Positions 2,123-9,675 of a DNA stretch of 14,284 nt are shown here, piece by piece. A program made the translations under genes and the position numbers. Positions within the stretch are counted from its first letter, which is position 1, and each line of letters opens with the position of its first letter. Source of the stretch: a virus (lineage: Duplodnaviria > Heunggongvirae > Uroviricota > Caudoviricetes). The stretch covers positions 64,001-78,284 of the IMG/VR virus record IMGVR_UViG_3300041411_000102; one strand, given 5' to 3'. The notes beneath the pieces are model-generated. The model was given only the letters and a program-made list of their open reading frames with translations, had not been told where the DNA came from and did not search any database.

Positions 2123-3469
2123 ATGAGGATTGATTTATGGAGTATAAGTAAGAAGGAGAGAAGTCAGATACAAACAAAGCTTACTCACTTTAACATTCAT
2201 TACAATCAAGGAAAGCAATATAAACATATAGTAGATGAACTGATGTCCTTGGATGTAGGTAAGAAAGAGGTATGGTGTGTTGTAACAAATATAGCTCGTG
2301 CTCTTAAATACAAAGCTATAGGTCTTTCTGTTCCTAGACAACGTAGTGCCTATTCTGGGAATGAACAGGGTGTGTCTCAGCGGCGTATGGTTATTCTTCT
2401 TGACAAGCTTGAGAAGGATGGTTACACTGATGACTTTATTGGGGGTGTTGTAGATTGGAAAGAGATGGATACAGTACAAAGCTGTATTATCTTCAAGCCA
2501 AAGCTGCTAGATCTCTTCAATGGTGTGGACGTCAGCAGTGAGCAAGATTACTTCAATGTTGTTGAGATTAAAGACAGAGAGACAAAAGAGCTTAAGTCTA
2601 AATCTGGTGTTCGGGGTGTCAAGATCATTACTGAGTATATGAATGCCTACAACCAACAATTAATGAATACAGAAATTAGTGATGAGACAGGTTTGCTGTC
2701 AGTCCAACAATACAAAAGAGTATTCTCTGATAATCTCCGTCAAGGCGGAAGGATTTATAACACTGCTGGAGGTGTTCAAGTGAAGAATGAGGAAGAACGT
2801 AGTTATATGAAGATTAATGGTGAAGAGATTGTTGAGTTAGATTTTAAGGCCATGCATCCAAGTCTTCTATACGAACAAGAGTATGAAGAGAACTCGGAAG
2901 ATATCGATGACTGGATTAAGAACAACTGGGGTGGCGACTATAATCCTTACGGTGCTCAGATGCCTTTCTTGAAAGTGAATCAGGATAAGGTAGAAGCATT
3001 TAAGAATACATTTGGTTTAGCTAAGTATGACCCAATTCGTAATTTGAATAAGCATGCACTTATGGTGAGCTTGAATGCAAAGACGTATCAGAAGGCATAC
3101 GTTCAGGTTACTGAAGAGTTTCGTGCAGACCAAGTTGCTTGGGATAAGCTCACTAAAGATGCGAAGTTTTATGGTATTGAATCTGTTGGTAACTTTCCGG
3201 GGCATACAGTTTGTCAGGCAGTGGCTGCACACAATAAACCCATTGCTAAATACTTCTTTAAGGATCAGGGCATTAAGATGCAGTATTTGGACAGTGAGAT
3301 TGTTGCAGATGTATTGAACCGACTGCTCATGGAAGATGAAGTACTGCTCCCCGAGCACGATAGTGTGATTGTTCGTGCGAGCATTAAAGATAAAGTTATG
3401 GGCTATATGCGTAGTGCTTATCTTGAGCTAATGGGATCTGATAAATTTTGTTATTTGGAGGTTAAATGA
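2123..3469 (+). CDS. minimal family-A / T7-RNAP-like polymerase-domain protein (448 aa)
   Basis: Motifs in the correct order: GGRIY (208-212, compare T7 RNAP DxxGRxY); motif A ELDFKAMHP (D240); motif B RNLNKHALMVSLN (R306, K310, M314; compare T7 RNAP RSVTKRSVMTLAY); motif C LPEHDSVIV (H412-D413-S414; compare IHDSF). No exonuclease domain recognised. Confidence 0.7.
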   Translation: MRIDLWSISKKERSQIQTKLTHFNIHYNQGKQYKHIVDELMSLDVGKKEVWCVVTNIARALKYKAIGLSVPRQRSAYSGNEQGVSQRRMVILLDKLEKDGYTDDFIGGVVDWKEMDTVQSCIIFKPKLLDLFNGVDVSSEQDYFNVVEIKDRETKELKSKSGVRGVKIITEYMNAYNQQLMNTEISDETGLLSVQQYKRVFSDNLRQGGRIYNTAGGVQVKNEEERSYMKINGEEIVELDFKAMHPSLLYEQEYEENSEDIDDWIKNNWGGDYNPYGAQMPFLKVNQDKVEAFKNTFGLAKYDPIRNLNKHALMVSLNAKTYQKAYVQVTEEFRADQVAWDKLTKDAKFYGIESVGNFPGHTVCQAVAAHNKPIAKYFFKDQGIKMQYLDSEIVADVLNRLLMEDEVLLPEHDSVIVRASIKDKVMGYMRSAYLELMGSDKFCYLEVK

Positions 3470-4023: not shown

Positions 4024-4027
4024 GTAC

Positions 4028-4056
4028 TTGCAATGTTATTGTATAACATGTATAAT
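4028..4056 (+). promoter_or_regulatory. near-consensus sigma70 promoter (rightward)
   Basis: TTGCAA (4028-4033), 17-nt spacer, TATAAT (4051-4056). Confidence 0.7.
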
Positions 4057-4065
4057 GTATTGCAA
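4038..4065 (-). promoter_or_regulatory. overlapping leftward sigma70-like promoter
   Basis: On the minus strand: TTGCAA (4065-4060), 16-nt spacer, TACAAT (4043-4038). Confidence 0.4.
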
Positions 4066-4123
4066 GCTACACAGAAGTGGCAGGAAAATTTAAAAAGATG
4101 TTCGGCCTTGAGCCACTTAAAGA

Positions 4124-4185
4124 AATGAACTGACGAGTTCTGAAATCCTCGGAATTAAACAAGCCTATCAATGTGTGTCTTTATT
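4124..4185 (+). ncRNA. type I hammerhead-like fold with a non-canonical core (UAAA instead of GAAA)
   Basis: CTGACGA core 4130-4136; 7-bp stem II; stem III ACA/TGT; GTC site 4177-4179; 6-bp stem I. The G12 position is T. Confidence 0.35.
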
Positions 4186-4273
4186 GATGCTCAAATGGTT
4201 TTAATACGGGGTAATGAATTATAAGTTTCACCAGCATAGCCGATAAGATTAAATTCTACATAAAGACTTTGCT

Positions 4274-4388
4274 TCCAAAAGCTAACGTTTTCTTCCTCTC
4301 TCCTCAACGTTAGCTCCTTAAAGATGCCTATCCCTCTCCGTAGGTTATCTTTCTGACCTTGATAGCGTGTAACGTACCTCTCCTTACG
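4274..4388. ncRNA. three-hairpin element with CTCTCC (plus) / GGAGAG (minus) loops; candidate sRNA
   Basis: Stems 4280-4289/4306-4315, 4327-4330/4341-4344 and 4373-4376/4385-4388. All three loops contain CTCTCC, and there are 7 GGA on the minus strand in about 110 nt. Confidence 0.45.
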
Positions 4389-4409
4389 GTATAGGCTTAG
4401 CACAGGGTC

Positions 4410-4476
4410 ATTTCTTAAAATTCCTGTAACTCATTAGTTATTACTGCAAGTCTGCTTGTCAGGAATTTTAAGAAAT
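4410..4476. repeat. perfect 17-bp inverted repeat enclosing two small hairpins
   Basis: ATTTCTTAAAATTCCTG (4410-4426) / CAGGAATTTTAAGAAAT (4460-4476); inner hairpins 4427-4440 and 4446-4459. Confidence 0.85.
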
Positions 4477-4535
4477 CAATTAAAGTAATATTTCTCATGT
4501 GTTCTATAGTGTATTTAATTACACACCTAGTCGGG

Positions 4536-4604
4536 TTCCAGTTAGTTCAGAGGCAGAACACTCCTTACGGAGAATAGTCGGCGAGTCAGGTAAGCCACTG
4601 GACA
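4536..4604 (+). pseudogene. degenerate tRNA-like element (tRNA-Val(UAC)-like remnant)
   Basis: Acceptor TCCAGT/ACTGGA; T8-A9; D arm GTTC-AGAGGCA-GAAC; shortened arm CTCC-TTAC-GGAG; T arm only GGC/GCC with no TTC; no CCA. Confidence 0.55.
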
Positions 4605-4661
4605 GAACACAGTAGAAATATTATTTATCCAAAACAACAATAATTCCAATGTAGGGACAAT

Positions 4662-7428: not shown

Positions 7429-7839
7429 ATGGCTAAGAAAATTACAAACCCAAATCCTAGCCCAGAAACTAGGTTTGGTGCAGAACGCTCTAACCAAAAT
7501 AAAACTGGTAATAGTAAAGTTCGCATTAACAAATCAAAACTACGCACTTTGGCCGACAAGCTTCTTGAACGCCAAGACATTGCACTTGAGCTAGTTGATA
7601 AGAGCTTGGCTGGTAAGGAAGTTAACCCAGATAGTGTTGCTTCGGCTAAATGGGTCCTGAACAGCATTGTTAGTGTTATCAAGAGTGCAAGCGCAGAAGA
7701 GTTGGGTTCGTTCAATGCTCGCCTGAAAGGGAAAAGAGATGACGAACCAGAAGAACAAACACCGGCTGAGATTTCTAAGGAATTGAAGCCACGTCTTAGT
7801 TTGGTTTATGTAGATCCTGACCAAGACGATGATGAGTAA
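7429..7839 (+). CDS. putative terminase small subunit (136 aa)
   Basis: N-terminal NPNPSPETRFG motif of the kind seen in TerS-like proteins; basic N-terminus, helical core, acidic C-terminus with PRLSLV; lies upstream of terL; AAGGA RBS. The function is inferred. Confidence 0.5.
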   Translation: MAKKITNPNPSPETRFGAERSNQNKTGNSKVRINKSKLRTLADKLLERQDIALELVDKSLAGKEVNPDSVASAKWVLNSIVSVIKSASAEELGSFNARLKGKRDDEPEEQTPAEISKELKPRLSLVYVDPDQDDDE

Positions 7840-8098
7840 CAAGAAACTCGAACGCAATCAGAAGCAGTGATATCGTTTGGAATTCTTGTTATTAGAAAGA
7901 ATTTCTGAGCTGCCTAGTTCGGAAGCCCGTGGTTCTGGCGGACCACTGATGTAAATGCTAGCGGGCAAGCCGCTTGTGGAGAGGGTCTTATTATGAAGAC
8001 CACGACTGAATGCAGGCAAGCGTGGCATCAGTCAATTATTTTATACACAATTATATTAAGAAGTATAATTGAGCTGAGTGGTACGAATTACCTACCAC
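7837..8098 (+). ncRNA. candidate structured RNA (multi-hairpin, GC-enriched core)
   Basis: Long imperfect hairpin 7837-7891 and hairpins 7929-7946, 7960-7974, 7984-8001, 8004-8033, 8048-8071 and 8078-8098. No long ORF. Confidence 0.45.
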
Positions 8099-8168
8099 GT
8101 ATACAATTTCCCTTTGCAACAATAACAATAAAGGCTCATAAGAGTCGTCTCTGAAGGGAGATAGCAAT

Positions 8169-9540: not shown

Positions 9541-9549
9541 CTGATTTAT

Positions 9550-9580
9550 AGATAACTCTTGAAATATAGAGTTATTTGTT
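9550..9580 (+). terminator. AT-rich hairpin, possible terminator
   Basis: ATAACTCT (9552-9559) / AGAGTTAT (9568-9575) followed by TTGTT. Confidence 0.4.
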
Positions 9581-9608
9581 AAAATAGCTAAATATATTTG
9601 TAATAAGC

Positions 9609-9638
9609 TTGACAAACTACTGTTGTGTAGCGTAATAT
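9609..9638 (+). promoter_or_regulatory. sigma70-like promoter
   Basis: TTGACA (9609-9614), 18-nt spacer, TAATAT (9633-9638), with an AT-rich upstream region. Confidence 0.45.
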
Positions 9639-9675
9639 CTCTTTTATGAATCGAACACAACAGGAGAGAATTTAA

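Follow-up and report, generated by a model that had tools for sequence, protein, structure and literature searches.

A conserved five-domain phage RNA with repeated CUCUCCU loops and its possible role in occluding Shine–Dalgarno sites

To our knowledge, a function has been assigned to few of the trans-acting small RNAs of lytic phages. The stable RNAs of phage tRNA clusters, such as the band C/D RNAs of T4 and the ncRNAs of PAK_P3, are still unexplained (PMC4933390); PAK_P3 ncRNA1 and ncRNA2 are abundant, late and processed (PMC4933390, PMC10914365). The cuckoo/alpha-r14 sRNAs (Rfam ar14, RF02344), among them NfeR1 of Sinorhizobium and RSs0680/CcsR of Rhodobacter, form a family defined by variable stems and one repeated loop that resembles the anti-Shine–Dalgarno (aSD) sequence (PMC4615179), and NfeR1 silences many mRNAs via three redundant aSD loops, independently of Hfq (bioRxiv 10.1101/2025.11.14.688489). 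In T4, the S1-activated endoribonuclease RegB acts very early (PMC3014915).

The window analysed here, meaning the whole stretch of 14,284 nt, covers the final 14.3 kb of a virus contig of 78 kb that is 89% complete. Its source is an uncultured myophage of ~89 kb whose nearest cultured relatives infect Pseudomonas: the Pseudomonas phage vB_PsaM_M1 (M1) is the nearest of these, the best matches of terminase and sheath are Pseudomonas myoviruses at ~45–51% identity, and we infer a Pseudomonas-like host. A small minus-strand block is followed by the gene for a 448-aa polymerase-like protein, a 640-nt gap (4024–4661), a tail-fibre gene, the gene for a 136-aa probable small terminase, and then large terminase and portal. 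Two more ORF-poor gaps in the late block, 7840–8168 and 9541–9675, may hold other structured RNAs.

A first-pass annotation of this DNA had reported three hairpins at 4274–4388 that display the same loop word, and folding does place CTCTCC at 4298, 4334 and 4378, each with an unpaired probability of 1.0 on the plus strand; the expectation for windows with three CTCTCC within 115 nt is about 0.02 per genome. The element is real, but its extent was underestimated. On comparative evidence, the hairpins are the middle of a conserved phage RNA of ~250 nt and five domains, rather than 115 nt, on the plus strand (Table 1); domains P1 and P5, the conserved leader at the 5′ end and the association with the tRNA cluster had been missed. 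The P3 loop is likewise present but shorter than the 10 nt given earlier, which include a closing U·G pair. The extent of the RNA is based on alignment A1 and covariance model R1 (15 seed copies). All 15 seed copies, folded independently, adopt the same MFE architecture, and held-out copies show the same overall layout. Within P5, helix 10 is 89.5% paired with two-sided changes in 10 of 16 pairs and helix 12 is 92.6% paired; the domain is a probable 3′ end cap or protein site. The full RNA (4225–4476) gives a fold z-score of −7.1 on the plus strand vs −4.3 on the minus strand, and the corresponding values for 4260–4400 are −3.4 and −1.9.

Table 1. Positions of the RNA, its domains and associated features (window coordinates unless a genome is named).
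Feature	Position	Strand	Remarks
448-aa polymerase-like protein	2123–3469	+	phrog_4756; in 10/10 carriers of the RNA, two copies in some
Sigma-70-like promoter TTGCAA-17-TATAAT	4028–4056	+	10/12 match, a level not above chance window-wide; probable precursor source, predicted activity
70-codon ORF overlapping the RNA	4191–4403	−	not a conserved gene
Structured non-coding RNA, five domains (leader-P1-P2-P3-P4-P5)	4225–4476	+	252 nt here; 215–252 nt in relatives
Conserved single-stranded 5′ leader GUUUCACC	4225–4232	+	invariant columns T2 T3 T4 A6 C8
P1, stem with internal loop	4233–4273	+	conserved AAG / AAUUCU core; two-sided changes in 8/8 outer pairs
P2, hairpin with perfect 10-bp stem 4280–4289/4306–4315	4280–4315	+	pyrimidine loop 4290–4305, CUCUCCU 4298–4304
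P3, hairpin with conserved AAAGA/UCUUU base	4320–4352	+	loop 4332–4339 carrying CUCUCC; alignment covariation
P4, long hairpin	4354–4410	+	loop 4377–4384 CCUCUCCU; two-sided change in 11/12 basal pairs
P5, three-way junction with 17-bp closing stem UUUCUWAA...UUWAGAAA	4411–4475	+	conserved AYUGC at junction
Small carrier-linked protein, first	G000 42930–43127	+	basic, early-block, no Pfam match
Small carrier-linked protein, second	G000 18672–18806	−	

Relatives were retrieved through the flanking proteins of the window, and nearly all of them have a CUCC cluster at the matching place. R1 recovered non-seed copies at 112–168 bits and one distant copy at 30 bits; at least 23 distinct RNA sequences occur in related phages, and whole RNAs share 51–82% pairwise identity (18 copies). 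Covariation in relatives, which the first-pass annotation had proposed to look for, is present, with two-sided changes in 53 of 69 pairs. In a sequence-only alignment, 77% of cells are paired, vs 63% when shuffled and 36–47% when slid, and none of 500 shuffles reaches the observed pairing, a comparison that these controls flatter because the structure was derived from the same sequences. We therefore added an alignment-free test in which the 5′ arm of one copy was joined to the 3′ arm of another. Such chimeras lose 5.5–10 kcal/mol, in all five domains (native vs chimera, in kcal/mol: P1 −7.8/−2.3, P2 −8.2/−2.4, P3 −10.8/−3.9, P4 −17.9/−8.0).

Across these copies the loops retain CUCUCCU even as the stems are replaced through compensatory changes. 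The core of 70 loops reads C56 U64 C68 U70 C70 C70 U63, and purines account for 7 of 558 loop bases, in hairpins whose stems are variable. Phages appear to swap whole domains with one another as modules; in L310, for example, P2 is nearly identical to that of the window and P1 is that of L001. The RNA is present as one copy in G000, is single-copy in each of 11 genomes searched whole, and remains single-copy across phages with exchanged polymerases, portals and capsids, and is therefore under strong selection. No match was obtained when M1 and G001–G004 were searched with R1. Distant phages, cultured M1 included, have simpler, R1-negative hairpins with CUCCU/CCUCCU loops in the same region as the RNA (L023 7690–7810; L024 14130–14180; L003 9520–9670).

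Three lines of evidence address the strand. In Watson–Crick-only folding, 1×1 mismatches inside helices are G·U in 16 cases vs A·C in three on the plus strand, and the reverse on the minus strand; this test was used because the count over the whole MAFFT alignment (G·U 71 vs A·C 60) is uninformative owing to misalignment. The fold z-score is better on the plus strand in 15/15 copies. The RNA begins at the very base after the CCA of a same-strand tRNA in L008, L011, L020, L021 and L310, and 1 or 9 nt past the CCA in two further relatives, while in L018 and L021 a canonical hammerhead lies upstream on the same strand. The wobble asymmetry, the z-scores and the orientation of tRNAs and hammerheads thus favour the plus strand.

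Since the junction AGUUU fits the RN/WUU cleavage preference of RNase E, the 5′ end of the RNA at the leader (4225) was probably made by processing. The promoter region is kept upstream of the RNA in L009 and L015. In two soil RNA runs from one study, contigs of relatives cover 4348–4441 at a depth of 81–339, compared with 11.5 for a neighbouring-gene contig; these contigs (1.1–2.3 kb) belong to other phages, are unstranded and were chosen by small word shares, which makes them a weak hint only. The tRNA- and terminase-proximal position and the biogenesis model recall the T4 band C/D RNAs and ncRNA1/2 of the related myovirus PAK_P3. The PAK_P3 RNAs were rejected as homologues (no shared sequence, CUCUCCU loops or fold, and no R1 match in L144) and are a precedent. 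Type I-F CRISPR repeats resemble the RNA at its ends, a likeness that was dropped given that UAAGAAA lies buried in the stem and that no Cas6f hairpin is conserved.

Other elements surround the RNA in the tRNA cassette. Just upstream, at 4155–4205 (+), lies an abiF-like motif (17.5 bits, E 2.7, cut-off 37), which recurs in L020 at 7569–7594 (19.9 bits, E 0.29, same cut-off; matching the consensus at 22 of 26 nt) and in L016/L017 at 4739. Known abiF motifs act in trans to neutralise the AbiF toxin (PMC12373285); no Abi_2 gene was found in the five genomes checked, and the motif may be an orphan antitoxin mimic. The stretch 4096–4222 (+), CTGACGAG...TAAAC, was considered as a hammerhead and is probably not one: L020 loses the core, and a GACG-loop hairpin covaries (GAACT/AGTTC to AGGAT/ATCCT in L020). 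It belongs instead to a separate conserved element of ~120 nt that includes the abiF-like motif and is 95% identical in L016/L017. A canonical hammerhead core, CTGATGAG...CGAAAC...GTC, is found upstream of the RNA at L018 4139, L021 2418 and L022 274–322 (+); this core in the relatives' tRNA cluster gives a weak match to Rfam HH9. Downstream, at 4483–4626 (+), a tRNA-like cloverleaf (4537–4604) with a 4-nt anticodon loop sits within a long stem (4483–4505/4604–4626). It was not called by ARAGORN, and this position is often occupied by a tRNA, or the relic of one, in relatives.

One of the two options in the first-pass annotation had been an anti-SD RNA expressed on the plus strand from the 4028 promoter; strand, RNA nature and motif bear this out, and its function we still infer. 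Our working model, in which we place about even confidence, is that of a late, cuckoo/ar14-like anti-SD RNA that occludes ribosome-binding sites of the GGAGA type. The RNA would be transcribed on the plus strand within a tRNA/late-gene precursor and released by a cut at the 5′ leader, with the P5 stem capping the 3′ end, to give a stable product. The sole job of the stems would be to display three fully open and mutually redundant loops with CUCUCCU, which would pair with (A)GGAGA(G)-type SD sites as cuckoo/ar14 RNAs do with CCUCCUCCC and would block 30S loading on many mRNAs simultaneously. Translation of early phage and host genes is probably dampened by the RNA, the likely purpose being, late in infection, to reduce the output of host genes and of early/middle phage genes; structural genes would be spared, tending as they do to AAGGA(A/U)-type sites. 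The outcome would be roughly that of T4 RegB, achieved with RNA.

SD usage in the carriers is in line with this model. In nine complete carriers, GGAGA accounts for 26 of 205 GGA-type SDs in the late block (13%) vs 326 of 770 elsewhere (42%; odds ratio 0.20), counts that rest on heuristic gene calls and on carriers from one related group, and AGGA(A/U/C) is commoner inside the late block. The same tendency, though weaker, is seen in five control genomes that lack the five-domain RNA (34% GGAGA outside vs 23% inside; pooled odds ratio 0.60), and two of them (G003 and M1) bear CUCCU-type hairpins of their own; the odds ratio lies below those of all five controls in eight of the nine carriers. 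Given the relatedness of the carriers, the heuristic calls and the controls' own hairpins, the SD bias therefore lends modest support, and it may reflect just general late-gene SD usage. A 7-nt seed would also provide little specificity and would match some late genes: the AGGAGAG sites pointed out earlier before genes 9676 (+) and 1376 (−) are real, and the first of these is a late gene. The anti-SD model, moreover, leaves P1 and P5, which are conserved as strongly as the loops, without explanation.

With the cuckoo/ar14 RNAs the phage RNA shares adjacent hairpins (P2–P4), freely varying and compensating stems, one pyrimidine loop motif and, in all copies, three redundant loops. P2–P4 of one relative score 38.8 bits (E 0.0009) against Rfam ar14 on the sense strand, where the gathering cut-off is 58.8, and the window's own copy gives no score. 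In contrast to the cuckoo/ar14 RNAs, however, the phage loop is CUCUCCU, with CCUCCUCCC in 0/51 loops, the RNA is about twice as long, with P1, P5 and the leader as additional conserved parts, and it resides in the tRNA cluster of a lytic phage rather than in an alphaproteobacterial genome. On motif, score and architecture it falls outside the cuckoo family; it may nevertheless work like a cuckoo RNA, and the likeness is probably convergent. The analogy to T4 RegB (PMC3014915) lies in a proposed selective shut-off of mRNAs with GGAG-type SDs that would spare late transcripts, whereas the phage agent is an RNA, probably late, that would occlude rather than cut.

The main rival to the anti-SD model is a serious one, and we rate it as a real if lesser possibility: the plus-strand RNA could be a protein decoy or scaffold whose pyrimidine loops imitate CU-rich single-stranded RNA or the 3′ tail of 16S rRNA. 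Candidate targets are an aSD-cutting MazF/HEPN-type defence nuclease, ribosomal protein S1 or Rho, with P1 and P5 as extra protein sites, and the RNA would be one among several anti-defence RNAs of the tRNA cassette. Multivalent identical loops on swappable stems would suit a sponge, and conserved unpaired motifs are found in P1 and P5. The cassette, too, holds tRNAs and, in some members, the abiF-like motif orphaned from an Abi_2 gene, and activated defences have been documented to remove the 16S aSD (bioRxiv 10.1101/2021.11.10.468108). Against a decoy, the loop is CUCUCCU, whereas the true tail reads ACCUCCU (just 6 of 51 loops contain CCUCCU), and it matches GGAGA, the commonest SD of the phage, more closely than it reproduces 16S. 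The search for a partner gene identified no such protein. Two small proteins (~70 aa; Table 1) are confined to carriers (9/10 and 8/10 vs 0/5 non-carriers), a distribution explained by shared ancestry.

Improbable in our view is a cis-acting or structural role, be it in the processing or stability of the tRNA precursor, as leader of the small-terminase-like gene or as a packaging-associated RNA. In many relatives the RNA lies within ~200 nt of the 136-aa gene, whose family is present in 10/10 carriers vs 1/5 non-carriers, most carriers having been found through that very gene. However, 1.5–3 kb with a tail-fibre gene intervenes in the window and in several relatives, the RNA persists in the window without any remaining tRNA, and all-pyrimidine loops are unable to pair mutually as pRNA loops do.

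We consider it slightly more improbable still that the plus strand acts as a sponge for GGA-rich small RNAs of the host (RsmX/Y/Z) or for RsmA sites on mRNAs, changing Rsm indirectly through loop–loop pairing. The probable host group uses Rsm, and UCC, the complement of GGA, is found in 51/51 loops, but the conserved flanks demand AGGAGAG, and in the loops of Rsm RNAs GGA is mostly followed by U or A and not by GAG.

The other option of the first-pass annotation, a minus-strand CsrA/RsmA sponge, has in our estimate only a very slim chance. As in CsrB/CsrC and RsmX/Y/Z, the mirror image of the structure displays GGA in hairpin loops, the minus strand of 4274–4388 does contain seven GGA where 1.4 are expected, and the host presumably has RsmA. 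Five of these GGA had been assigned to loops; in the minus-strand ensemble two are fully open, but the remaining three reach 0.34–0.55. The other strand is favoured by wobble pairs, by fold z-scores and by the orientation of the tRNAs, and a minus-strand transcript would oppose the tRNA/late operon as an antisense RNA. Conservation lies in CUCUCCU (AGGAGAG on minus) and not in ANGGA/CANGGANG: CANGGANG occurs at 0/121 minus-strand GGAs and ANGGA at 17/82 open GGAs, about chance. The loops are large, mostly 7–18 nt. The TTTT read as a terminator after the 10-bp hairpin includes the last base of the stem and follows a 16-nt loop; no terminator was called there, linkers differ among relatives, and neither U-tract nor terminator is conserved. 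No Rfam Csr/Rsm family matched either strand, in a search whose control sets held no genome above the cut-off.

That the locus consists of chance hairpins or encodes the protein of the 70-codon minus-strand ORF present in the window, which the earlier annotation had named as its refuting case, is negligibly probable, given that the ORF has no PHROG family match and is not conserved in relatives (stop-free stretches over the matching region fall below 60 codons in 15/16 of them, in varying frames, and A1 contains indels of all lengths) and that covariation is strong in at least 23 copies.

Neither the window region nor the RNA of a relative matched cultured phages, no match to the RNA was found in plasmids, and the 136-aa gene has no match in cultured phages at E<0.01. 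One narrow pattern scan of GTDB returned a single chance match that R1 rejected, and looser scans gave mostly chance hits among the matches listed. The RNA matches no Rfam family and no description was found in the literature searched; the supplement of PMC10690425, an IMG/VR structured-RNA catalogue, may hold fragments.

The invariant 7-nt loop provides a directly testable target rule, and CUCCU-loop hairpins could be tested in M1, which is culturable. If SD occlusion is true, the phage reallocates ribosomes with an RNA, which would offer a ready scaffold for programmable translation repression. More speculatively, and at a likelihood we would call low though not trivial, this would be a lytic phage lineage with an RNA-run early-to-late switch, in which a multivalent anti-SD RNA from the tRNA cluster silences all GGAGA-type sites of host and early phage genes and late genes have evolved an escaping SD dialect; if true, such a switch would be the RNA counterpart of T4 RegB.
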